40,415 bases of DNA from Acidimicrobiia bacterium. GTDB taxonomy: Bacteria > Actinomycetota > Acidimicrobiia > IMCC26256 > JAGPDB01. The notes below the pieces were generated by a model, which was given only the letters and a program-made list of their open reading frames with translations, had not been told where the DNA came from and did not search any database. The position numbers and the translations under genes are program-made. The stretch covers positions 33,824 to 74,238 of the forward strand of contig DAOLGI010000001.1 in the NCBI GenBank assembly GCA_035329685.1. The letters are read 5' to 3'. Shown piece by piece: positions 314 through 38,741 of the stretch. Within the stretch, counting starts at the first letter, position 1. The number at the start of each line of letters is the position of its first letter.

Positions 314-479
314 CTCGTGACAACTGAACGAACTGCCAACACGCCGATTTTTGTGGGGAGGGTCCGACTAGTCATCCTGAGTTTACGAAGGATCTCAACT
401 TCGTTGACCACTTCGATTTTGAGATCCTTCGGCTAAAGCCTCAGGACGACTGTGTCGCTTTTCCAAGATCAGACCCTAA
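314..479 (-). repeat. Rep-C full unit whose hairpin apex is interrupted by a Rep-A copy
   Basis: The minus strand reads TTAGGGTCTGATCTTGGAAAAGCGAC..[Rep-A 450-371]..TAGTCGGACCCTCCCC-ACAAAAATCGGCGTGTTG-GCAGTTCGTTCAGTTGTCACGAG. Confidence 0.8.
371..450. repeat. Rep-A two-armed copy nested in the apex of a Rep-C hairpin
   Basis: GTCATCCTGAG..GAAGGATCTCAA / TTGAGATCCTTC..CTCAGGACGAC form an 80-nt inverted repeat. Confidence 0.85.
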
Positions 480-4756: not shown

Positions 4757-5110
4757 ATGGCTACTCCAAAGAAGGGTCCACGTCTCGGGCGCGACCCCAA
4801 ACACCAGAAGCTCATTGTTTCTACAATGGCGCGACAGTTCTTCACGCATGGTGCAATGGAAACAACCCTTGCTAAAGCTAAGCACATGCGCCCCGAATTG
4901 GAACGTATGATTACCAAAGCACGTAAGGGAAACAACCAACACGTTCAACGACAGCTCGTTGCTGTTCTTCGTGACAAAGGTGTTGCACACAAGCTCGTAG
5001 AAGAGATTGCACCGAAATACGCAACTCGCCAAGGTGGATACACTCGCATCTTGAAGCTTGGGCCACGTGATGGTGACCGTGCAATGATGGCGCGCATCGA
5101 ACTCGTCTGA
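4757..5110 (+). CDS. rplQ: 50S ribosomal protein L17
   Basis: 117 aa containing GGYTRILKLGPRDGDRAMMARIELV. It sits after rpoA. Confidence 0.95.
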   Translation: MATPKKGPRLGRDPKHQKLIVSTMARQFFTHGAMETTLAKAKHMRPELERMITKARKGNNQHVQRQLVAVLRDKGVAHKLVEEIAPKYATRQGGYTRILKLGPRDGDRAMMARIELV

Positions 5111-5179
5111 GTTTTCTGTCGAACCGCAGGCAAAGCCTGACGGTTCTCGCGGTCGCTCCTCCGATCGCTCCCTGTGACT
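5111..5179 (+). repeat. Rep-B copy directly after the rplQ stop
   Basis: GTTTTCTGTCGAACCGCAGGCAAAGCCTGACGGTTCTCGCGGTCGCTCCTCCGATCGCTCCCTGTGACT. Confidence 0.9.
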
Positions 5180-5180
5180 C

Positions 5181-5244
5181 CATTGTCGACGAGTACGCAA
5201 AGCGCACACGTCTCGCGGTCGCTCGTCCCTCGCTCCCTGTGACT
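5181..5244 (+). repeat. Rep-B diverged tandem copy
   Basis: CATTGTCGACGAGTACGCAAAGCGCACACGTCTCGCGGTCGCTCGTCCCTCGCTCCCTGTGACT. The 3' half is conserved and the 5' hairpin is rebuilt with different bases. Confidence 0.8.
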
Positions 5245-5247
5245 GTC

Positions 5248-5283
5248 GTCATCCTGAGCTTGCGAAGGATCTCCGCGCAGCGG
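5248..5283 (+). repeat. Rep-A left-arm copy
   Basis: GTCATCCTGAGCTTGCGAAGGATCTCCGCGCAGCGG. Confidence 0.8.
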
Positions 5284-5303
5284 GATAAATCGGAGTCACA
5301 AGA

Positions 5304-5382
5304 CTCGATACAAGTGAACGAACTGCTGCGAACACGTTGCTTTTGGGGAGGGCCGCACCTGCACAGCAGGAACGACCCTATA
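5304..5382 (-). repeat. Rep-C minimal unit (5-nt apex) just upstream of truA
   Basis: The minus strand reads TATAGGGTCGTTCCTG-CTGTG-CAGGTGCGGCCCTCCCC-AAAAGCAACGTGTTC-GCAGCAGTTCGTTCACTTGTATCGAG. Confidence 0.85.
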
Positions 5383-5393
5383 GTAGATAACTC

Positions 5394-6209
5394 ATGAAAA
5401 ACTTTCGTGCCATCATTTCTTATAACGGATCCAAATTTCATGGGGTTGCTGAACAGGTGACACAGCCCGGTCAAACACCTGTACGAACAGTTGTGGGGGA
5501 GTTGCGGGCAGTTATTGAGATGGTTGCGCAAGCTAGTCCTTCAATTGTTGTGTCAGGGCGCACCGATAAAGGTGTTCATGCTCGTGAGCAAGTTATTTCT
5601 TTTAGTTTTCCTGAGAATTTAACGATTGATCTTGATCGTCTGATGCATGTGTGCAATAAGCGGTTAGGCCCGGAAGTCGTAGTGCACGAAATAGTGGAAG
5701 CACGCGAAGATTTCAATGCGCGTTATAACGCGAAGGCTCGAACGTATCGCTACTTTATTGATAACAGTGCGCAGGCGAACCTCTTTCTTGCTGACTATGC
5801 GTGGAATGTAAGTGCTCCGCTTGATCTTGATGCTATGAAGAGTGCAGCTAAGTGCTTTGTGGGCGAGCAGGATTTTTCGAGCGTATGTCGCGCCGACGAT
5901 TCCATTTCACACAACATCCGCGAAGTCTTCTCAGCTGATTTTATTGAAGTGGACTACCCTGAAATTTTCTCTATGCCAGCTTTGCAGGGTCAGACCCTGC
6001 AAAGTAGCAGCTTGTTGTGCTTTGAGATTTCGGCCAATGCTTTCTGTTGGCAGATGGTGCGCTCAATTGTCGGAGTTCTCGTTGATGTTGGGCGAGGAAA
6101 AATATCTCCTCATGACATCACTGCTCTCCTCGAGAATAAAGATCGTCGAACAAACACAAGCCAGCTCGCTCCAGCGCATGGTCTTACCTTGTGGCATGTT
6201 AAGTATTAA
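5394..6209 (+). CDS. truA: tRNA pseudouridine(38-40) synthase TruA
   Basis: 271 aa containing GRTDKGVHA (catalytic Asp motif), FCWQMVRSIVG and APAHGLTL. It carries an in-frame repeat fragment at 5980-6003. Confidence 0.9.
   Translation: MKNFRAIISYNGSKFHGVAEQVTQPGQTPVRTVVGELRAVIEMVAQASPSIVVSGRTDKGVHAREQVISFSFPENLTIDLDRLMHVCNKRLGPEVVVHEIVEAREDFNARYNAKARTYRYFIDNSAQANLFLADYAWNVSAPLDLDAMKSAAKCFVGEQDFSSVCRADDSISHNIREVFSADFIEVDYPEIFSMPALQGQTLQSSSLLCFEISANAFCWQMVRSIVGVLVDVGRGKISPHDITALLENKDRRTNTSQLAPAHGLTLWHVKY
5980..6003 (+). repeat. Rep-C-derived palindrome embedded in frame in truA
   Basis: CTTTGCAGGGTCAGACCCTGCAAA is identical over 24 nt to 13437-13460. Confidence 0.85.
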
Positions 6210-7081
6210 ACACGCTCATTTATGAAGGTGCGTTGAAGAAATCGCCTCTCTGATGGATTCCGTGCAGGTTTAAATGCTTCCCGACCATGCGGAGAAACGC
6301 CGTTTACAAAAGCTAGAAACTCTCCAGGTTCAAGAATGATGTCCGTGGCAACATGTTTACATGCAGAAAATAGGCTTAGTAATGCTGATGATTCTCTCGA
6401 TGCGTAGGGCGTATGTGTTCCAGCGGACAGACGAGCGGTGATTCCACTCCCTTTTTGAGTCAATATCGGAACAGGGTTCTTTGTAGGGTCGGACCCTCTA
6501 ACAAAAGTGAACACAGGGCTTCTTAGAATGTCGATAGTTTCTGCATCGAGTTCTGCAAGGACATCGGCTAGCGAGACGACGAGTGTTTTAGCACGCTCAC
6601 CGTTTTTATAACATCCAAGAATTACGATATCGGGTATTTCATCAGTGTCTGGGTTGGATGCTTGATCGGTATGAAAACCAAATCGCTGTTGTGATCCTAA
6701 ACCTGTATTCTTCTTACCGTTGTGACGCTTGAGAGGAAACACGTCTTGTGCAAGAACCCCAAACTGTTGATCCTCTATTCCAAAAGGTGTGCCTAGAGAA
6801 CACGCTATTGCGAGATGCAATAAGCCAAACCGTGTTCGTTCTCGTCGATCATCTGACTGAGGTGCTCGTGGAGCAGGTCTCATTAAATCAGAAGCAAAAT
6901 ACCGTCGTTGTTGATTAGTTAATGTAAGGACAACTTGATCAGTACCTGGGGTAATGGAAGGAACTGATTCTCGTAACATTTCAAGTGCTTCACGCTCCCT
7001 ACCCGGCTTAAGTAGTCTGCGAGGCGCATTAATAGCTAATCCCGCGAAGGTGTCGTCGACATGAATCCGTTCAATTGCCAT
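6206..7081 (-). CDS. Fe(II)/2-oxoglutarate-dependent oxygenase, TauD/clavaminate-synthase-like (possible amino-acid hydroxylase)
   Basis: 291 aa with an HxD facial-triad motif (FHTDQA), a distal His/Arg (SPHGREAF) and GVLAQDVFP, as in CAS-like hydroxylases. It is the only minus-strand gene in the r-protein block. Confidence 0.6.
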   Translation of the reverse strand: MAIERIHVDDTFAGLAINAPRRLLKPGREREALEMLRESVPSITPGTDQVVLTLTNQQRRYFASDLMRPAPRAPQSDDRRERTRFGLLHLAIACSLGTPFGIEDQQFGVLAQDVFPLKRHNGKKNTGLGSQQRFGFHTDQASNPDTDEIPDIVILGCYKNGERAKTLVVSLADVLAELDAETIDILRSPVFTFVRGSDPTKNPVPILTQKGSGITARLSAGTHTPYASRESSALLSLFSACKHVATDIILEPGEFLAFVNGVSPHGREAFKPARNPSERRFLQRTFINERV

Positions 7082-8130: not shown

Positions 8131-8226
8131 GTTAACGAACTGGTAGCTCCATGGGGAGGGTCCGGCCGTGGAAAGGTTGTGACCTTTGTAGGTCACTTTT
8201 CCTTACTTTCCAAGGCCAGACCCTAA
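8131..8226 (-). repeat. Rep-C unit with shortened tail, between rpsI and glmM
   Basis: The minus strand reads TTAGGGTCTGGCCTTGGAAAG..GTGACCTACAAAGGTCAC..CTTTCCACGGCCGGACCCTCCCC-ATGGAGCTAC-CAGTTCGTTAAC. Confidence 0.8.
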
Positions 8227-8262
8227 CTTCGCTGGTCCTCCCGTGACGTTGAAAGGTTTTTT

Positions 8263-9619: not shown

Positions 9620-12600
9620 ATGTGTGGAATCGTTGCCTTCGTTCGTAAACCTACCACTCTCCAACCGGCTGATCTTTCTGATCTGATCGGTGTTCTTGCC
9701 GGCATTGACAAAGAGAGCAATGAAGCATTATTGAATGTTGACAATGATGCATTGTCTACACGTGCAGAGCAATGTATCAGCGTCGGTGGCATCATTACTC
9801 TTGTGAGAGACCCTGTTCTTCGCAAAGAACTGAGCGAACACTCTGATGGTCTGCGTGCTCACGTCGACGATTCTTTGGCTGAAAATATTGACCTTTCTGA
9901 AAACGACAAAGAACACTTGATCGCGCTCAATGATTCATTGTGGAGAATGAGTAAGGATGCTTGTGTAGGCGCACAACAAATTGCAGATCTGATCGGAGAC
10001 ACTTCGAGTTCAAGCGACAATGTGATAACTATCTATAGATCGATCAATCTTGTTCTCCGTAGTATCGATCGTATCGAGGTACGTGGCCGCGATAGTGCTG
10101 GTATCAGCATCTGTCTTACTTCGTTCTCCGATAAACAGCCTGCGTATTTCACATATAGGCGCGCTGCGGAAATTGGAGAACTCGGCGATAACGTAAAAGA
10201 TCTCCGCCGACAGATTTCACAAGACAGAGTTCTTTATGAGGCGATTTCGACTGAGGAAACATGTCACGAAATGGTTCTTGCGCATACACGCTGGGCATCT
10301 ATGGGTGTCATCAGTGACAGCAATACGCACCCGCTTGACTCTTCGGAGATCAATATTGACTCTTCGGTTATTGCATTAGGCGCTCTTAACGGTGACATTG
10401 ATAACCATCAAACGTTTCGTAGTGAATGCTCGATCGATCCTTCGGTAACAACAGATGCCAAACTCATTCCTGTTTTACTCACGCATGAACGAGAGCAGAA
10501 TCCTAAACGTAGTGTGCTTGATTCATTCCGTAATGTTGTGACTAGATTCGAAGGTTCTACCGCAATTGCAGCCGTTACTTCAGACGACCCGTCCAAGCTC
10601 TTGTTAGCTCTGCGCGGTGGAGGTCAGGGCCTCTTTATTGGTTTAGGCGACGATGAATTTATGATTGCGAGTGAACCCTATGGCGTAGTTGAAGTCTCGG
10701 ATCAATATATTCGTGTGGATGGGGAAACGCCATATGATGATAATCCCGATCGTAAAGTTTCTTCCCGAGGTCAGATATTTGCTTTAGATGAAAATTCCGC
10801 CGGCACCTTAGACGGTCTTACGCGAATTGCGTACGATGGAAAAGTATTACCATTGCTGGATTCTGAAATAGTCATTAGTGAAGTCACGACGCGAGATATC
10901 GACAGGGGAGACTATCGGCACTATCTCTGGAAAGAAATTAACGAAGCTCCTCGGAGTTTTGCGACGACTCTTGCTGGAAAGTTTGATCCAACGCATACGT
11001 CTCCCGTTATATCGAACGACATTTTTCCTGATGACTTGGAAAACAAAATTTCTAATGGTTCTATAACTGAAATCTTGATAATCGGCCAGGGAACTGCAGC
11101 AGTTGCAGGTCTTGCTTGTGCACACTTCTTTTCTGCAATAAAAAGTGAACTCACCGTGCGCGCAATATTAGCAACAGAAGTTTCCGGCTTCGGCCTACGA
11201 GACAACATGAAAGATGTTCTTGTCATTGCAGTATCTCAATCGGGAACAACAACAGATACCAATCGTACGGTAGATTTATTGCGTGATCGAGGCGCGAGTG
11301 TTATTGCAATAGTCAATCGTCGCGGTAGTGATCTCACAACAAAAGCCGATGGAGTTTGTTATACCAGTAGCGGTCGTGATGTGGAAATGTCCGTGGCATC
11401 CACAAAAGCCTTTTACGCACAGGTGGCTGCAGGTGCATACTTGGCTATGTCTATTGAGTACATTCGATCACACAAGAGACCATTTGATTCAGGAACGGTT
11501 TCCATTATTTCTCACCTGATCGATTTGCCTGGCAAAATGCGAAAAATCCTGAGCGATGAATCACATCAAAAGATCGCTGACACTGCATATCGCACAATCC
11601 TTTCGCGGCGTTCCTGGGCTACTGTGGGCAATGGAGCTAACTCGATTGCTGCCCGTGAAATCCGAATTAAATCTTCAGAATTATGTTACAAAGCGATTGC
11701 CTTAGATTCCACTGAAGACAAGAAACATATCGATCTTTCATCTGAACCACTCATCGTTGTCTGCGCGACAGGGATGCAGGGTTCTACCGCTGATGATGTT
11801 GCTAAAGAAATAGCCATCTATCGCGCACACAAGGCTTGTCCCATTGTCATCACGGATGATAAGAGTGAGCGATTTGATGAAAGCGGAGAAGTCATTCACG
11901 TTCCGGAATCACATCCGGCCGTGAGCTTTATCCTCGCTGCAGTAGCAGGACATATTTTTGGTTATGAATCAGCTCGTGCAATCGATGAAACGGCGCGAAC
12001 ATTGCGCGAAGCACGCGGGGCGCTTGCGCTTCTTACACCTGAAGAACTTGAATCTTCATCGGCGATGGCCAAGATTAGAAACATACTTCTCGAACCAGCG
12101 AATCATTTTTTTGCACGAATGAACAACAACGAATTCGATGCAATCCTTGATGCCAGTGATGCAACCAACCTCACGAAACTTTATATCGCTCTTACGAGTA
12201 ACCCTGCGCGGCCAGATCTTCTTCAAGAAAACTGCGGAGGTCTCAAGACCGAGCAAGCTCTCGCTAATTGTGCTGTATCTATCTTGACACGCTGTATCGA
12301 TCAGCTCACACGCCCTATCGATGCGATCCGTCATCAAGCAAAGACGGTGACTGTGGGAATATCACGCTCGGACGATACACTTCTTCGCTCGCCATCCGTT
12401 TCGTATCTTCTTGATGCGGGTGTCGGTCGTGATCTCTTGCAGTACACGGTGATTCGTACGCTTTCTGCGCTCGATGAAATGATCGGTTCGATTACTGGTC
12501 ATACCCGCTACCAAATTCAAGGTGATGCCGGGTCAGGTGAAGCAACACTTTCTATTATTGAGCAAAAGGGGAGTGCGGCCTCGCTTACTTCACGAGTGAC

Positions 12601-12937
12601 GAGCAATCCGCTTCTTCGAGGCACCAAGAGCCTCACTGCTCGTGAGCAGACCGTGTGGGTAGCGCAAGGGAAAAGCGATGGTCGCAATGTCATACTTGTT
12701 CCCGAGATTTCCCGCTCTCAAACCATTGGCCTTACTCTTCTTCATATCGATGTGGATGAATCGATTTCGGTCGCTGCTCGTAAACGAGTTCTTGAAGGAT
12801 ATAAACAACGACTTTTTGCACTGCGGGATGCAGTAACGGAAGTTCAAGATACATTTGACGAAAATAGGCTAGGCGAAATTTCTATTATGGAGCTATTGAC
12901 TGACCCTGTTGTCGTACTAGCGCAGCGCTGGTTGTAG
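9620..12937 (+). CDS. Glutamine--fructose-6-phosphate aminotransferase homolog, greatly expanded (1105 aa)
   Basis: N-terminal MCGIV (Ntn Cys), then RGRDSAGI, HTRWAS, LNGDIDN and two SIS motifs (SQSGTTTDT, VASTKAF). A GlmS-type C-tail motif, AKTVTVG, lies at 12338-12358. It occupies the glmS synteny slot after glmM but is about 1.8 times the canonical length. Confidence 0.7.
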   Translation: MCGIVAFVRKPTTLQPADLSDLIGVLAGIDKESNEALLNVDNDALSTRAEQCISVGGIITLVRDPVLRKELSEHSDGLRAHVDDSLAENIDLSENDKEHLIALNDSLWRMSKDACVGAQQIADLIGDTSSSSDNVITIYRSINLVLRSIDRIEVRGRDSAGISICLTSFSDKQPAYFTYRRAAEIGELGDNVKDLRRQISQDRVLYEAISTEETCHEMVLAHTRWASMGVISDSNTHPLDSSEINIDSSVIALGALNGDIDNHQTFRSECSIDPSVTTDAKLIPVLLTHEREQNPKRSVLDSFRNVVTRFEGSTAIAAVTSDDPSKLLLALRGGGQGLFIGLGDDEFMIASEPYGVVEVSDQYIRVDGETPYDDNPDRKVSSRGQIFALDENSAGTLDGLTRIAYDGKVLPLLDSEIVISEVTTRDIDRGDYRHYLWKEINEAPRSFATTLAGKFDPTHTSPVISNDIFPDDLENKISNGSITEILIIGQGTAAVAGLACAHFFSAIKSELTVRAILATEVSGFGLRDNMKDVLVIAVSQSGTTTDTNRTVDLLRDRGASVIAIVNRRGSDLTTKADGVCYTSSGRDVEMSVASTKAFYAQVAAGAYLAMSIEYIRSHKRPFDSGTVSIISHLIDLPGKMRKILSDESHQKIADTAYRTILSRRSWATVGNGANSIAAREIRIKSSELCYKAIALDSTEDKKHIDLSSEPLIVVCATGMQGSTADDVAKEIAIYRAHKACPIVITDDKSERFDESGEVIHVPESHPAVSFILAAVAGHIFGYESARAIDETARTLREARGALALLTPEELESSSAMAKIRNILLEPANHFFARMNNNEFDAILDASDATNLTKLYIALTSNPARPDLLQENCGGLKTEQALANCAVSILTRCIDQLTRPIDAIRHQAKTVTVGISRSDDTLLRSPSVSYLLDAGVGRDLLQYTVIRTLSALDEMIGSITGHTRYQIQGDAGSGEATLSIIEQKGSAASLTSRVTSNPLLRGTKSLTAREQTVWVAQGKSDGRNVILVPEISRSQTIGLTLLHIDVDESISVAARKRVLEGYKQRLFALRDAVTEVQDTFDENRLGEISIMELLTDPVVVLAQRWL

Positions 12938-13337: not shown

Positions 13338-13406
13338 TTTTATTGTCGAACCGCAGGCAAAGCCCGACGGTTCTCGCGGTCGCTCCTCCGATCGCTCCCT
13401 GTGATT
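13338..13406 (+). repeat. Rep-B copy 5 nt after the acpS stop
   Basis: TTTATTGTCGAACCGCAGGCAAAGCCCGACGGTTCTCGCGGTCGCTCCTCCGATCGCTCCCTGTGATT. Confidence 0.9.
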
Positions 13407-13460
13407 GCAGGGCCAGGCTCTGGTTGTGGAAAACTTCTTTGCAGGGTCAGACCCTGCAAA
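13407..13460 (+). repeat. Rep-C-related hairpin without tail; its right arm is a perfect 23-nt palindrome
   Basis: GCAGGGCCAGGCTCTGG-TTGTGGAAAACTTCTTT-GCAGGGTCAGACCCTGC. TTTGCAGGGTCAGACCCTGCAAA (13438-13460) is self-complementary. Confidence 0.7.
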
Positions 13461-13480
13461 ATAACAAGTGGAGGTAGAGA

Positions 13481-16211: not shown

Positions 16212-16730
16212 TTGACGGAAGTGATTTTTAGACGGGACAATGTTTCCCGAGAGAACATGTCTGAAATGGCTGCTGACTTAGGCGCATTTCTTTGTGGAGG
16301 CGATGTCGTCATCCTCATTGGTGACATCGGCGCAGGTAAAACTACTCTGGTTGCTGAAATGGCTCCTCTCCTTGGCGCGCATGTTCAGGTGACATCTCCT
16401 ACCTTCGCGATTGTCGCGGAGTATGAATTGGCTAATGAATATCAAGGGATCAAGAAAATTATTCACGTCGATACCTATCGTCTTGTCGGAGTCAACGAGC
16501 TTTACGATCTTGGTTTTGAAACAATCTTTGCTCCTCATGCTTTGACGATGATTGAATGGGGTGAACGTATCGAAGAGTATATTGATCGAAATCATTTTCG
16601 TCTCATTATTGAAGAACAAACGCCTGACACGCGTTCGTTTGTTTTCGAAGTCGTTGGCAATTTAGATAAAGAGAGAAGTTCGCTTCTCGAAAATCGCTTA
16701 CTCGAGAGTGGTTGGTATCAAAATGTCTAA
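16212..16730 (+). CDS. tsaE: tRNA t6A37 biosynthesis ATPase TsaE
   Basis: P-loop GDIGAGKTTLV and SPTFAIV. It sits in the tsaE-tsaB-rimI-tsaD cluster. The start (TTG 16212) is uncertain; ATG 16257 is an alternative. Confidence 0.85.
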   Translation: MTEVIFRRDNVSRENMSEMAADLGAFLCGGDVVILIGDIGAGKTTLVAEMAPLLGAHVQVTSPTFAIVAEYELANEYQGIKKIIHVDTYRLVGVNELYDLGFETIFAPHALTMIEWGERIEEYIDRNHFRLIIEEQTPDTRSFVFEVVGNLDKERSSLLENRLLESGWYQNV

Positions 16731-17472
16731 CGTTTTAACCATCGATTCTTCGACGAATGCTGTTGCGGTGGCCTGTGGAAGTTCAGATCGTGATGCTTCG
16801 AGTCGATGTGTCGAACAGCGTGCATTTCATTCGGAAAACATTCTTGTTGTGATCGACGAGATTCTCCAGGAACGATCGCTGACCATGAAGGATATAGATG
16901 TGATCGGCGTGGGAGTCGGGCCTGGTCTCTTTACGGGTTTGCGCGTTGGGATTTCTGCCGCTCACGCTTTTGCTCACACCCTCGATATACCTTTGGTATA
17001 TTTTTCTTCCCTCGAACTCACCGCCATATCGTTTGCAGGGTCCCACCCTGTCTGTGGAAAAGTAGTGGTGGCACGCGACGCACGCAGGCATGAACTTTAT
17101 AGTGCAACATACGAATCTGCACTTCTTCCGACTACGCAATGTACGATTGACACAACGACATTCTCGACACGACTTAATCGTATACATGAAGAAGCCTTGC
17201 TTACCCCCGAACAGTTTGTTGAAGCAGTCAATGTGAGTGAAGATACACAAGTATTTCTGGACGATATATCACGCTATGAAGAGTTTTCGCAGTTCACAGA
17301 AACATCTCGCTCGCATATTCAACCAGCGAGTATTGATGCTCGATACATGCTCGATCACGTCATCGAAGCAGCACAGGCAGGGATTGTCGCCGATGTCTTT
17401 GCTCCTTCTGCGCTCTATATTCGAAAATCGGATGCAGAATTATCCTGGAACATTCAGGAGTCTGTTTCATGA
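16723..17472 (+). CDS. tsaB: tRNA t6A37 biosynthesis protein TsaB
   Basis: Starts MSNVLTIDSSTNAVAVA and contains GPGLFTGLRVG. ATG 16723 overlaps the tsaE stop. Confidence 0.85.
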   Translation: MSNVLTIDSSTNAVAVACGSSDRDASSRCVEQRAFHSENILVVIDEILQERSLTMKDIDVIGVGVGPGLFTGLRVGISAAHAFAHTLDIPLVYFSSLELTAISFAGSHPVCGKVVVARDARRHELYSATYESALLPTTQCTIDTTTFSTRLNRIHEEALLTPEQFVEAVNVSEDTQVFLDDISRYEEFSQFTETSRSHIQPASIDARYMLDHVIEAAQAGIVADVFAPSALYIRKSDAELSWNIQESVS

Positions 17473-19616: not shown

Positions 19617-19680
19617 TTCACGTCTTCTGTCAACTTTGCCCGTACGGGCGTGGCGGCGAATAGCAGAGGATCTTCTGTCT

Positions 19681-19731
19681 GTCATCCTGAGTGCAACGAA
19701 GGATCTAGATTCCTCGCAGGCTCGGAATGAC
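19681..19731 (+). repeat. Rep-A complete two-armed copy (51 nt)
   Basis: GTCATCCTGAG-TGCAAC-GAAGGATC-TA-GATTCCTC-GCAGG-CTCGGAATGAC. Confidence 0.9.
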
Positions 19732-23281: not shown

Positions 23282-23297
23282 TCCGCTGTTCTTGCAG

Positions 23298-23424
23298 TTA
23301 GGGTTGTCCCTTGGAAAAACGGAGAAATACAGAGAATCTCACATGAGATTTCTCATACGTTTTCCAAGGGGCGGCCCTCCCCTTAAAACAACTAAACAGC
23401 AGCAGTTCGTTCAGTTGTACCGAG
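23298..23424 (+). repeat. Rep-C full unit after guaA
   Basis: TTAGGGTTGTCCCTTGGAAAAACG..apex..CGTTTTCCAAGGGGCGGCCCTCCCC-TTAAAACAACTAAAC-AGCAGCAGTTCGTTCAGTTGTACCGAG. Confidence 0.9.
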
Positions 23425-23506
23425 TCTTATAGCCTAAACCTGCGTGGACATCCCATCTCCAACTACACTGCAATGCATATATTCACACAGTGAAAGAGGT
23501 TGTCCC

Positions 23507-27098: not shown

Positions 27099-27153
27099 GT
27101 CATCCTGAGAGCACATACGTCATCCTGAGTGCAGCAAAGGATCTTTAGCTGCA
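27099..27153 (+). repeat. Rep-A copy with duplicated GTCATCCTGAG head
   Basis: GTCATCCTGAGAGCACATACGTCATCCTGAGTGCAGCAAAGGATCTTTAGCTGCA, which includes a TGCAGC/GCTGCA stem. Confidence 0.85.
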
Positions 27154-27220
27154 ACACTGGGTGAAAACTTTTCATCTGATCGATTTGAATGAGCAACACT
27201 GGCCTATTAGAATGTCTCGA

Positions 27221-28309
27221 ATGACCGTTTTAGGAAGAGATCACCCAGAAGATGTAAGAACATGGATGGAACTTCAACATGGTCAATGGGTAACGCCAAC
27301 CGAAATTCAGCGAGCTATTCTCAATCACTGGGGAATCACTGATGTCGTTATCGGTGAGAGAATGGCAACAGGTGAAGCAACTGAAGTGTACCGCGTGCAC
27401 AAAAGGCCTACCGAAGGCCAGGATGACGGACTTTTAGGCTATCTCAGGATTGCTAATCATGGTGGTCTGAACGATGCGGAAATTATATTAATGGAGGCAT
27501 GCCGTGCTGCAGGCTTGCCCAGTGTGGAATTATTACATTCTTCTCCATATCAATTACGCAACGGTCAAATATCGTCTGATCTGGGCGCAACTTTCCTTGC
27601 TCCAGCGGTAGGTCTAAACCTTGCTGAGGCTATTGAGCAAGGTACCTACGACATTGAAGTAATAAATACGGCGTTGCGTAATGCGGGCGCGTTGCTAGCT
27701 CACATTCATAGTTTACCTGATGTTAATGTCGGTGTTGCTCAAGCGGTCGAGCGGGGTTTGGCGAGAAGTCAGAGAGATGATTTTAGTCGTGACTTAGCTT
27801 TTCTTCGAAGGACGATGCAGTACATTCCAGAAGCAACTCCTCTTTTACAACACATTAAACAAGCAGCACGTGATCATAAAGCAGGACTTGCGGATATACA
27901 GAGCAAATATCCACGCGCATTGGTGCATGCCGACTTTGATCCGAAGCATCTTTTCTTTGATCCATTGACTGGCGATATTACATCTCTTATCGATTTTGGC
28001 GGTGCACACGTAAATGTTGCGCATGCCGATTTCTTTCATTGGAAAACATTTTCTCCTATGACGTACGAGGTTTTTCTTGATGCTTATCTCGATGAGAGAT
28101 TTGGCTTTGACTTAATTGATGCGCAAGAATTCGAAGCTGAAATTGACTTGGCATATGCGGCTTGTAATTTAAGGTCAGCATGTGTACGGATGGATCAGCT
28201 GCTTGTAAATGAAGCAGTAGGCCATTTACATAATTGTGCAAGCGCTTGTGATCGTATTGCGCCCAGGGTAAAGGTACCCACAGCATCTGAAGGTGCCCTG
28301 TCCTATTAA
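27221..28309 (+). CDS. APH/choline-kinase-family phosphotransferase-like protein, paralog 1
   Basis: Contains a Gly-rich ATGEATEVYRV, the catalytic-loop-like HADFDPKH and IDFGGAH. I chose the start at the ATG shared with paralog 2; the ORF remains open upstream to GTG 27161. Confidence 0.6.
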   Translation: MTVLGRDHPEDVRTWMELQHGQWVTPTEIQRAILNHWGITDVVIGERMATGEATEVYRVHKRPTEGQDDGLLGYLRIANHGGLNDAEIILMEACRAAGLPSVELLHSSPYQLRNGQISSDLGATFLAPAVGLNLAEAIEQGTYDIEVINTALRNAGALLAHIHSLPDVNVGVAQAVERGLARSQRDDFSRDLAFLRRTMQYIPEATPLLQHIKQAARDHKAGLADIQSKYPRALVHADFDPKHLFFDPLTGDITSLIDFGGAHVNVAHADFFHWKTFSPMTYEVFLDAYLDERFGFDLIDAQEFEAEIDLAYAACNLRSACVRMDQLLVNEAVGHLHNCASACDRIAPRVKVPTASEGALSY

Positions 28310-28370
28310 TATGATTCAAGTTACCATTACTTTTTGACTAAAAAGGCCAGATGTCGATAGAATGTCTTGA

Positions 28371-29447
28371 ATGACCGTTTTAGGAAGAGACCATGAAGAT
28401 GATATTGCTCTTTTTTTCAGAAGCCAACATCGTATATGGACAACTCAAAAAGGTGCACGTAAGAAGATTCTCGCAAGTTGGGGGATAAAAAACTTTTCTA
28501 TAGGGAAACGAATTGCTACCGGTGAAGCGAGCGAGGTTTACCCTGTTAACGATAAATCAACTAAAAAATTGTTGGGTTATTTACGAATTGCTCATCGGGG
28601 AGCAGGGAGTCGTAACGGATGCGAAGTCACTCTTATGAAGGCTTGCGACGAGGCAGGTTTGCCCAGTGTGCGATTATTGCATTCTGCGGATTTGTCACGG
28701 GCAAATGGTAAATCCCCTATTGAAGGAGCAATAACCTTTGTAGCCCCTGCACGTGGAATGAATCTTCAAGAGGCCATTTTGATGCCGGGTATAGCTCAAG
28801 GGCTCATTCGAAATGCAGTTCATAATTCAGGCATTTTTCTCGCAGAGATGCATTTGCTCAGAGACCGCGATCCTGCAGTGGAAAAAATGGTAAGTAAATT
28901 TTCATATGCAGAAGCCTCAACTCAACTGGGTAAATTTTTTAATAAAGCAAGAAAAACGTTACGGCGTTTAGATGAGACTAAAGAACAATTCGCAGCTATC
29001 GACGACGCTTTCCTCCAGGTATGGGAAGGGCTTGCACGTCTTTATCAAGAATATCCTCTTGTTTTAATACATTCCGATCTTGAACCGAAACATGTTTTCT
29101 TTAATATCAATCGGGGTGAGCTTCTAAATGTGATTGATTTTGGTAGCGCGCATGTCAATATTCCACACTTCGATTTGCTCAACTGGAAAACTTTTTCGCC
29201 GGAAACATTCGACGAATTTGCCCAATCATATCTCGATGCCCGATTTGGAAGTGACTACGAGAGAGCATCGCACTTCATGGAGGAACTTGATTTTGCGGAG
29301 ACTGTGTGGCAATTAGATTGGGCGCTCTATCGCATGGAGCACCTCCTCGTTGCTGAAGCATGCGGGCATGTGCAATTGGCGGGCGAAGCATGTCGCCGCA
29401 TTATTGCAAGAGATTTACAACCACATCGAGATTTGGGACATCCGTAA
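28371..29447 (+). CDS. APH/choline-kinase-family phosphotransferase-like protein, paralog 2
   Basis: 358 aa, collinear with paralog 1 (ATGEASEVYPV, LLGYLRIA, HSDLEPKH, IDFGSAH). Confidence 0.6.
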   Translation: MTVLGRDHEDDIALFFRSQHRIWTTQKGARKKILASWGIKNFSIGKRIATGEASEVYPVNDKSTKKLLGYLRIAHRGAGSRNGCEVTLMKACDEAGLPSVRLLHSADLSRANGKSPIEGAITFVAPARGMNLQEAILMPGIAQGLIRNAVHNSGIFLAEMHLLRDRDPAVEKMVSKFSYAEASTQLGKFFNKARKTLRRLDETKEQFAAIDDAFLQVWEGLARLYQEYPLVLIHSDLEPKHVFFNINRGELLNVIDFGSAHVNIPHFDLLNWKTFSPETFDEFAQSYLDARFGSDYERASHFMEELDFAETVWQLDWALYRMEHLLVAEACGHVQLAGEACRRIIARDLQPHRDLGHP

Positions 29448-30700: not shown

Positions 30701-31591
30701 ATGAGTATTTTTGTTGATAAAGACACAAAAGTTATTTACCAAGGACTCACCGGTTCGCAAGGGCACTTCCATGGAATGCGTAATAAGGAATACGGAACGC
30801 AGGTTGTTGCAGGAACAAACCCTAAAAAAGCAGGTACGGATGTTGAAGGTGTTCCTGTATATGGAACAGTTGCCGAAGCGAAAGCAGCAACAGGCGCTAC
30901 CGCGAGCTGTATTTTTATCCCTGCTCCTGGAGTTAAAGGGGCGGTGCTCGAAGCAGCAGAAGCAGGAATTGAATTCATTGTCGTTATCACGGAAGGTGTT
31001 CCGAGTCACGACGAAGCCCAGTTTTACAACCAAGTAAAAACAGAACATCCGAACACGTTTATTCTTGGTCCTAACTGTCCTGGAATCATTACGCCGGGTG
31101 AATGTAACATAGGAATTATTCCTGGACAGATTGCACTCGCGGGTGGACCCGTCGGTGTTGTTTCTCGTTCCGGAACTCTGACCTACCAAGCCGTTCATGA
31201 ACTCTCACAACGAGGTATTGGTCAAACCACGTGTGTGGGTATTGGGGGGGACCCTGTTCCCGGCGTGACACACATTGATTGTTTGGAGCGATTTGAAGCT
31301 GACCCAGATACCAAGGCTGTTATCTTGATTGGTGAAATTGGTGGTTCTGCTGAAGAAGATGCAGCGCAATTCATTGCCAACAAAATGACGAAACCTGTTG
31401 TTGCTTACATTGCGGGTGTTACAGCACCTGCGGGAAAGAAAATGGGCCATGCCGGCGCAATCATTTCTGGAGGTAAGGGTACAGCACAAGGCAAGATGGA
31501 TGCGCTTACGGCTGCTGGAGCAACCGTAGTGATGAACCCAACGGAAATTGGTGCTGCAATGGCAGACGTGATCGCAGGCTTTACACCATAG
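30701..31591 (+). CDS. sucD: Succinyl-CoA synthetase alpha subunit
   Basis: 296 aa containing [17 protein letters not shown] and the phosphohistidine motif MGHAGAI. The stop TAG forms the first bases of a Rep-C copy. Confidence 0.95.
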
Positions 31592-31688
31592 GGTTGGACC
31601 TTGGAAACGAGATTTTGTGCGACGAGCTGTAGTCCAAGGTCCGGCCCTCCCGGGAAGCACCGAAAGTAGCAGCAGTTCGTTCAGTCAT
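31589..31688 (+). repeat. Rep-C full unit starting at the sucD stop codon
   Basis: TAGGGTTGGACCTTGGA..apex..TCCAAGGTCCGGCCCTCCCG-GGAAGCACCGAAAGT-AGCAGCAGTTCGTTCAGTCAT, with a 15-bp stem 31591-31605 / 31633-31647. Confidence 0.9.
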
Positions 31689-31740
31689 CGCCGATATTTT
31701 GGTGGCGATTGTCTAAAGTTGTACTTCATATTGTCGAAAG

Positions 31741-34837: not shown

Positions 34838-34938
34838 TTAGGGTTGTTCCTGGTGCCAGGAGCGTAGCGACTGAGCAGCAGGTGCGACCCTCCCCATAAG
34901 CAACGCATCTACAGCAGTTCGTTCAGTTGTATCGCGAC
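34838..34938 (+). repeat. Rep-C full unit after purH
   Basis: TTAGGGTTGTTCCTG..apex..CAGGTGCGACCCTCCCC-ATAAGCAACGCATCT-ACAGCAGTTCGTTCAGTTGTATCGCGAC. Confidence 0.9.
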
Positions 34939-34940
34939 TC

Positions 34941-35007
34941 GTGGTCCGCAGGTACGGCCCTCCCCTAAATCAACTGTGTTGCAGCAGAACGTTCAGTTGT
35001 TTCGAGG
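34941..35007 (+). repeat. Rep-C half unit in tandem with the preceding full unit
   Basis: GTGGTCCGCAGGTACGGCCCTCCCC-TAAATCAACTGTGTT-GCAGCAGAACGTTCAGTTGTTTCGAGG. Confidence 0.8.
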
Positions 35008-35017
35008 TTTTCCATTT

Positions 35018-35072
35018 GTCATCCTGAGTGCAAAGAAGGATCGAGATTCCTCGGCCAACGCCTCGGAATGAC
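35018..35072 (+). repeat. Rep-A complete two-armed copy (55 nt)
   Basis: GTCATCCTGAG-TGCAAA-GAAGGATC-GA-GATTCCTC-GGCCAACGC-CTCGGAATGAC. Confidence 0.9.
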
Positions 35073-38534: not shown

Positions 38535-38603
38535 GTTTATTGTCGAACCGCGGGCATAGCCCGACGGTTCTCGCGGTCGCTCCTCCGGTCGCTCCCTGTG
38601 ATT
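38535..38603 (+). repeat. Rep-B copy directly after the icd stop
   Basis: GTTTATTGTCGAACCGCGGGCATAGCCCGACGGTTCTCGCGGTCGCTCCTCCGGTCGCTCCCTGTGATT. Confidence 0.9.
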
Positions 38604-38724
38604 CGGTCTGACCTTGGAAAAACGGAGAAAACAGAGAATCTCACAAGAGATTTCTTCTACGTTTTCCAAGGTCAGACCCTCCCCAAACTAACGATGTAGC
38701 AGCAGTTCGTTCAGTTGTATCGAG
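38604..38724 (+). repeat. Rep-C full unit fused to a Rep-B copy after icd
   Basis: CGGTCTGACCTTGGAAAAACG..apex..CGTTTTCCAAGGTCAGACCCTCCCC-AAACTAACGATGT-AGCAGCAGTTCGTTCAGTTGTATCGAG. The apex is about 90% identical to 23322-23357. Confidence 0.9.
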
Positions 38725-38741
38725 CGGTGTGGCCCAAGGCG

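Follow-up and report, generated by a model that had tools for sequence, protein, structure and literature searches.

The window analysed here, a stretch of 40,415 nucleotides from an Acidimicrobiia bacterium (assembly GCA_035329685.1, contig DAOLGI010000001.1), carries within its truA gene a short palindrome that is translated in frame. The gene and the palindrome are placed as follows:

5394..6209, + strand: truA coding sequence, 271 aa, intact, host of the palindrome (ORF list; Pfam PF01416 at 1.3e-36; PDB TruA matches; AF2 model)
5980..6004, + strand: perfect 25-nt palindrome, a single-hairpin copy of a repeat family (sequence; 24/24 match; RNA fold; sister ortholog)

The truA palindrome, its host and its relatives

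Besides the Pfam domain, the host ORF has structure matches to the TruA proteins of E. coli (1dj0, at 5e-24) and Thermus (at 8e-21), and its GRTD catalytic motif is invariant in an alignment of 32 TruA sequences. The original prediction described truA as essential, which is too strong, since the gene is not generally so; in E. coli, truA (hisT) is dispensable. Between truA and rplM lies a TauD/TfdA-like dioxygenase gene (6206-7081, - strand), which converges on truA with a 4-nt overlap at the truA stop, and the nearest homologs of its product are only ~39% identical.

The closest genome is GCA_964391505.1 (contigs CAYMMG01; hereafter the sister genome), whose gene order is syntenic with the window and whose proteins in the common region are 80-100% identical to those of the window (RpoA 98%, RplQ 100%, TruA 81%). 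The nearest named homologs of TruA, IleRS and Fmt belong to Acidimicrobiia MAGs. The same three proteins have their nearest named homologs in Acidimicrobiia in two public MAGs that are titled 'uncultured Burkholderiales bacterium' (CAYMMG01, with L001, L008, L009 and other contigs, and CAZFAO01, with L050 and L131); since CAYMMG01 is also syntenic with the window, both record titles look mislabelled. The dioxygenase gene next to truA is missing from the sister genome and from L118, one of the two contigs that carry the next TruA orthologs, and on the other one, L117, a different gene of 360 aa is found there.

When G6004 is included, the truA copy is a perfect palindrome of 25 nt, with arms of 12 nt and its centre at A5992. 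Its codons (GCT TTG CAG GGT CAG ACC CTG CAA AGT) read A196-LQGQTLQ-S204, in agreement with the in-frame translation ALQGQTLQ that had been proposed. The identity on which the original prediction was built is equally exact: the 24-mer CTTTGCAGGGTCAGACCCTGCAAA is found at 5980-6003 and at 13437-13460 (24/24), with no match in 100 dinucleotide-preserving shuffles. An identical TruA is encoded on contigs assembled independently from several public samples, the DNA identity of the site having been checked on one contig, and separate assemblies of ENA, Logan and NCBI data contain the gene with its palindrome for both species; the palindrome is therefore not an assembly artefact. A chance or convergent palindrome, produced by the codon choice for LQGQTLQ, could draw on the fact that CTGCAG-type codons are self-complementary and that lone 21-mer matches in GC-rich genomes may be chance coding matches. 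Nevertheless, 24/24 identity where no match is expected, a hairpin variant that tracks the genome (see below) and the independent assemblies leave this explanation, together with that of an artefact at a repeat, effectively refuted.

The structural context agrees with what had been expected, namely a surface loop. The AlphaFold model of TruA, obtained from the alignment, has a mean pLDDT of 91.4 and TM scores of 0.82-0.84 to 1dj0 (0.83), 1vs3 and 2nqp, and in this model the segment encoded by the palindrome lies in the loop that joins helix 188-191 to strand 207-214; residues 191-200 have a mean pLDDT of 54. The palindrome is thus predicted to sit in a low-confidence surface loop of an otherwise confident model, and the length of this loop is variable across the wider family in the alignment. 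TruA is the one host gene for which the fold-compatibility of the site was judged.

Among TruA orthologs, the segment is confined to the window organism and the sister genome, the latter with LQGPALQ at the same site in a protein of the same length. The next orthologs, P0003 on L117 (65% identical) and P0005 on L118 (63%), are shorter by 6 and 5 codons, respectively, exactly at the palindrome site, which has nothing palindromic in either of them (CCG AAC GGA CAG TCG; CCA AAC AGT TCA AGA); no copy of the hairpin family was found in the 10-20 kb of syntenic DNA of these two contigs. No ortholog free of the repeat carries LQG..LQ. The proposed difference of about 20 residues to typical TruA proteins therefore holds for distant ones only (E. 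coli is 18 residues shorter at the segment, and Thermus ~12), whereas the nearest palindrome-free orthologs differ by 5-6. The net gain of 15-18 nt (5-6 codons) is less than the 24-25 nt of the element, and hence this is not a clean insertion.

At the RNA level, a hairpin is predicted at the truA copy (-21.8 kcal/mol, z -3.7). It is followed by AGTAGCAGCTTG, inside the ORF, and not by a T-run, and so the reading as an intrinsic terminator was dropped. A search of the whole window against Rfam 15 gave no match at the gathering score. Around 5980-6004 there is no direct repeat (CCAGC before the palindrome, TAGCA after it); with no target-site duplication seen at the truA copy and an element that is a single hairpin, the reading as a MITE was also set aside.

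Members and modules of the repeat family

The truA palindrome belongs to a REP/REPIN-like group of short hairpins in DNA with the core TTGCAGGG-YCNGR-CCYTGCAA, which takes the form of single hairpins, inverted doublets and a two-hairpin module of ~57 nt. In the window, the family and the repeats with which it may be confused are represented by the following features:

6479..6502, - strand: degenerate palindrome CTTTGTAGGGTCGGACCCTCTAAC, 19/24 to the 24-mer, within the TauD-like ORF 6206-7081, read as VRGSDPTK; candidate family member
13339..13409, + strand: 71-nt repeat module ('Rep-C head'), with other copies at 5112-5182 and 38536-38606 (direct-repeat family D1)
13404..13461, + strand: intergenic two-hairpin module in the acpS-alr spacer, made of hairpin 1 (13405-13423), a linker (TGTGGAAAAC..) and hairpin 2 (13437-13461, the 24-mer) (sequence; L001 ortholog)
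17033..17062, + strand: hairpin 1 plus linker, in frame in tsaB (ORF 16708-17472), read as FAGSHPVCGK, in a variable loop (27/30 to the coaBC copy on L138)
38663..38681, + strand: right arm of a repeat from a long-hairpin family distinct from that of the 24-mer, TTTCCAAGGTCAGACCCT, with further copies at 460-478 and 8207-8225

The original prediction took the 24-mer for the right arm of a longer repeat, Rep-C, in its tail-less form. In the window, the 71-nt module does adjoin the two-hairpin module. The orthologous module in the acpS-alr spacer of the sister genome (L001 16528-16576) keeps both hairpins but lacks the 71-nt head, so that the 'tail-less Rep-C' is a composite of independent modules, and the 24-mer is instead hairpin 2 of the separate ~57-nt unit. 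Two further observations can be kept in part. The core GGTCAGACCCT is present at 38670-38680, but it belongs there to the long-hairpin family (TTTCCAAGG...), with which the 24-mer shares the core only. Likewise, GTAGCAGC at 6004-6011, which was read as the start of the Rep-C tail, occurs three times in the window against 0.64 expected, but the resemblance is weak, the same position being occupied by AAGAATGA in the sister genome.

The two-hairpin module is common to the acpS-alr spacer, coaBC and tsaB, the last of them with hairpin 1 and the linker. In coaBC, on contig L138, it lies in frame in the CoaC-CoaB linker and is read as LQGPTLSVDNSFAGSDPA. This contig shares its ENA sample with one that is collinear with the window, and its divergence from the sister genome is the same as that of the window; its assignment to the genome of the window organism is by these two features alone. 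The tsaB copy, in an ORF assigned to the Pfam TsaD family, is identical to that of coaBC at 27 of 30 positions, where none would be expected by chance. In-frame copies within coding sequences are thus present in truA and tsaB of the window, in fmt and coaBC on a contig of the sample of the window, and in fmt and ileS of the sister genome. A tlyA-like methyltransferase of the sister genome possibly carries another in-frame copy. As for the degenerate copy in the TauD-like ORF (6479-6502), it brings no length gain relative to homologs, these being only 35-39% identical.

When a genome collection was scanned with TTGCAGGGYCNGRCCYTGCAA, the sister genome yielded many copies. Of those in its sampled part, 11, in both orientations, are identical over 21/21 nt to an imperfect master, TTGCAGGGCCCGGCCTTGCAA, and 5 are variants of it. 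Inverted doublets with spacers of ~57 nt are found at L008 1468/1545 and L089 3574/3652, and overlapping doublets at L009, L027, L042, L044 and L071; the one on L008 lies directly against the stop codons of two ORFs that converge. The flanks of ~25 copies are usually just T...A, with no conserved GTAG or CGTC tag, and the GTAG after the truA copy is not kept in the sister genome. The window version of the hairpin is open in five of the six reading frames, and the sister master in all six. Copies borne by genes use the frames LQGxxLQ and FAGxxPA, and no stop codon occurs in the frames used.

The intergenic space of the window is crowded with at least four other repeat families, namely the 71-nt module, a 'tail' GCAGCAGTTCGTTCAGTTGTATCGAG, hairpins of the type GTCATCCTGAG..GAAGGATC, and the long hairpins AGGGTTGGACCTTGGAAA...TTTCCAAGGTCAGACCCT, which have G:T pairs on the + strand. 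Several of these other families are also found in the sister genome. In the window, the repeats of these families lie at 100-480, 1690-1730, 5110-5370, 8150-8230, 19670-19720, 23290-23430, 27110-27145, 31590-31690, 34840-35055 and 38536-38730. Two coding regions of the window also deserve mention. The ORF at 9620-12937, in the glmM-acpS interval, encodes 1105 aa, with GATase_6 at residues 217-352 and SIS at 484-610 (Pfam) and most of the protein free of any domain match; the long form is kept in all relatives seen (1105-1124 aa), and a typical GlmS is much shorter, at ~610 aa. The adjacent ORFs 27161-28309 and 28371-29447 are paralogs with an APH-type kinase domain (gene calls of L133), and their upstream repeats (27208-27253 and 28358-28403) are 87% identical.

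Change of copies at shared sites

The two genomes share sites of the hairpin, which makes the fate of individual copies comparable. In the window, the truA copy and the spacer copy are both GGGTCAGACCC, in the same orientation. In the sister genome, the truA and spacer copies are both GGGCCCGGCCTT, with four differences from the window version; here, the spacer copy reproduces the truA copy exactly, down to the asymmetric G:T position and the loop base, but as its reverse complement, and the truA copy is identical to ten other copies of the genome over 21/21 nt. At the truA site, GGGTC-A-GACCC in the window stands against GGGCC-C-GGCCT in the sister genome, where the arms stay paired by way of a T:A to C:G change and a G:T pair. 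The same picture is given by fmt. In both species, one loop of the Fmt C-terminal domain harbours a long palindrome (TTTGCAGGGTCCAACCTTGCAACAGGGTTGGACCCTGCAAAA in the sample of the window, TTTGCAGGGCCCGGCCTTGCAACAGGGCCGGGCCCTGCAA in the sister genome), the two versions differing by three changes per arm, all of them compensated; fmt orthologs of at most 68% identity do not have the palindrome.

As the insertion sites are common to both species, they predate the split between them, and as the copies at these old sites match the other copies of their own genome, at least one of the lineages must have replaced or converted its old copies, in either orientation and including those within coding sequences. 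Comparison of the two genomes thus shows copies of the hairpin that are still undergoing replacement by, or conversion to, the current master of each genome. For the window organism, this 'master' consists of three identical copies within ~58 kb (the window plus L138); contigs reached through the genes at the ends of the window lengthen it by only ~2 kb. The element is carried by no outgroup, and hence the direction of change between the variants is not readable. In a covariation count over ten distinct variants of the single 21-nt hairpin, covariation is confined to pair 9:13 and cannot be told apart from that of shuffles, so the case for concerted change relies on identity within each genome against difference between orthologs and not on covariation statistics.

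These data also bear on the possibility that truA retains the hairpin as a signal acting in RNA or DNA, whether for mRNA processing or stability, as a translational pause or as a protein-binding site, with copies that track a co-evolving binding factor. The stability of the predicted stem, the pairing retained in the sister genome and the position of the intergenic copies near gene ends, a placement at which an action of REPs on transcripts has been proposed (PMC3733652), would all suit such a role. On the other hand, the missing T-run speaks against an intrinsic terminator, no Rfam match was obtained, and covariation is not significant; the asymmetric position falls as G:T on the mRNA strand of truA, whereas in the spacer the mRNA strand has an A-C mismatch there, the family is spread over many unrelated genes in two different frames, and relatives do without the truA hairpin. 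We therefore regard a signal function as very improbable.

How the copies entered their host genes may differ from gene to gene. In ileS of the sister genome (L045 4901-4921), the 21-nt master stands in place of a native stretch of equal length, TLQGRALQG aligning gapless with TVPGHALVD and TLPGDSIEG of relatives with 82-85% identity, which looks like overwriting and not like insertion. The ileS of the window organism was not found, and the closest IleRS proteins (82-85%), from other samples and genomes, have no palindrome. The tsaB copy of the window brings no length gain relative to L118, and this lack of length change in ileS and tsaB fits overwriting better than insertion. The same tsaB loop in the sister genome contains a clean in-frame insert of ~44 nt from a different, intergenic repeat (..TCCTGAGG..GAAGGATCTCAAC..), located at L001 20160-20203 and 93% identical to the intergenic positions 410-451 (- strand) of the window. 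In fmt, the doublet of 39 nt gives only ~5 extra codons. The mixed pictures of truA, ileS and tsaB indicate that repeats both insert into and overwrite permissive loops.

Taken to its extreme, overwriting would mean that truA received no insertion at all: gene conversion from dispersed copies would have overwritten a native loop of TruA that was already similar to the repeat by chance, the extra codons being ordinary drift in loop length. The exact replacement in ileS, the tsaB copy without length gain, the few codons added by the fmt doublet and the wide differences in the length of the TruA loop across the family would be in line with this. However, the site of L117 and L118 has nothing palindrome-like and is 5-6 codons shorter, and the added length in truA is not explained by conversion alone, so we hold this alternative to be quite unlikely.

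We consider it probable, instead, that the truA palindrome is a REP/REPIN-like hairpin copy in a variable loop, kept up to date with the master of its genome and tolerated as a passenger. In the last ancestor that the window organism shares with its sister, a hairpin copy entered a variable loop at the surface of TruA or overwrote part of it; the unit has no stop codons in the frames used, the host gene is still intact, and the copies at shared sites continue to be replaced by, or converted to, the current master in either orientation. The homogenising process may be short-patch gene conversion between hairpins, or cut-and-replace by a putative REP-associated (RAYT-like) enzyme. From the lack of a T-run and of an Rfam match, from an orientation to transcription that is not consistent among copies, and from the relatives that do not have the hairpin, we infer that the truA copy is a tolerated passenger without a role of its own in the protein.

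The 21-nt palindrome is also multi-copy in unrelated MAGs, namely of Nealsonbacteria, Saccharibacteria, Woesebacteria, a 'Gammaproteobacteria' MAG of 33% GC and Roseibium (loci of the genome-collection scan, including L010, L014, L019, L022, L026, L033, L062, L077, L086, L091, L097 and L099). The in-frame hosts there, according to Pfam, are UvrA, UvrC (twice), RadA, PheT, MnmA, Dus, the delta' subunit of DNA polymerase III (holB-like) and a Sua5-methyltransferase fusion (sua5-trmB-like), and in several cases the domain length equals that of the Pfam profile, with no gain. The same G:T asymmetry is often present in the palindromes of Patescibacteria and other low-GC MAGs, and 28 nt of the window (13436-13463) are identical to a Saccharibacteria contig from termite gut (L126). 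A scan of JGI metagenomes with a 23-mer gave 8 matches, from Saccharibacteria and others and none from the window organism, and a full-text literature search for the palindrome sequence returned primer matches only. A distribution of the palindrome across phyla is thus possible. A more far-reaching proposal would be an element that is still active and spreads horizontally, overwriting short native stretches of housekeeping proteins with a sequence open in all six frames and updating all its copies to the master through a putative mobilising or converting enzyme; we see this as unlikely.

Comparison with known palindromic repeats

The nearest precedent is that of the Rickettsia palindromic elements (RPEs), which are dispersed palindromic repeats of ~100-150 bp located between genes and in frame within housekeeping genes (Ogata et al. 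2000, 2002, as presented in PMC10969869). The likeness drawn in the original prediction is borne out: a lineage-restricted dispersed palindrome is read in frame in a loop of a housekeeping protein, members of the same family lie in other, unrelated housekeeping genes as well as between genes, a short extra peptide is added at positions compatible with the fold, as judged for TruA, and a sizeable fraction of the loci seen falls within ORFs. The element described here differs from RPE-1 to RPE-10 in length (21-25 nt, or ~57 nt for the module) and in its Acidimicrobiia-like host, RPEs being specific to Rickettsia, and also in that copies at orthologous sites change in concert and that some of them replace native sequence without any gain in length. 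By analogy, it would be an element that works like an RPE but is none.

REPs are palindromes of 20-40 bp that occur singly and as inverted dimers, mostly near the 3' ends of genes, with an intragenic minority that notably includes genes for DNA repair and for tRNA synthetases (Di Nocera et al. 2013, PMC3733652). Copies in the sister genome (11 identical and 5 variant) are imperfect palindromes within the same 20-40 nt range, near-identical, multi-copy and close to gene ends, as on L008. The intragenic cases are also similar, with truA, tsaB, ileS and fmt here and uvrA, uvrC, radA and pheT in other phyla. The copies differ from the GTAG and CGTC superfamilies of REPs in having neither tetranucleotide, and the hairpin family is not among the sequences quoted in the main text of PMC3733652. 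The REPIN-RAYT system, with REP singlets and inverted doublets described as extragenic (Bertels and Rainey 2011, PMC3116915, PMC3337134), provides a further parallel: singlets stand beside doublets inverted around a short spacer, each genome has a master sequence of its own in many identical copies, and the repeats persist vertically among related species; the difference is that several copies are translated here. The doublet between convergent stop codons has a classic REP/REPIN placement (PMC3733652, PMC3116915).

Intragenic insertions of ERIC and MITE sequences that result in in-frame fusions have also been described (Delihas 2007, cited in PMC10969869). As in those cases, a small non-autonomous repeat within a coding sequence adds a peptide. 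MITEs have terminal inverted repeats and target-site duplications. Neither is visible at the truA copy, which sets it apart from them.

The kind of element is therefore already known from RPEs and intragenic REPs, and a free-living, uncultured actinobacterial lineage now joins the small number of cases of selfish palindromic DNA being translated within core enzymes. For annotation and phylogenetics, such hairpin patches represent non-orthologous sequence within otherwise orthologous genes. As the sister genomes share insertion sites, the fate of the inserts is directly traceable, and, unlike the decay after insertion that is generally described for RPEs, in-gene copies stay identical to the other copies of their genome, from which it follows that copy correction reaches coding sequence and alters the protein (LQGQTLQ versus LQGPALQ). 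This concerted change of translated copies, together with a possible spread across phyla, is what the family adds to the systems described so far.
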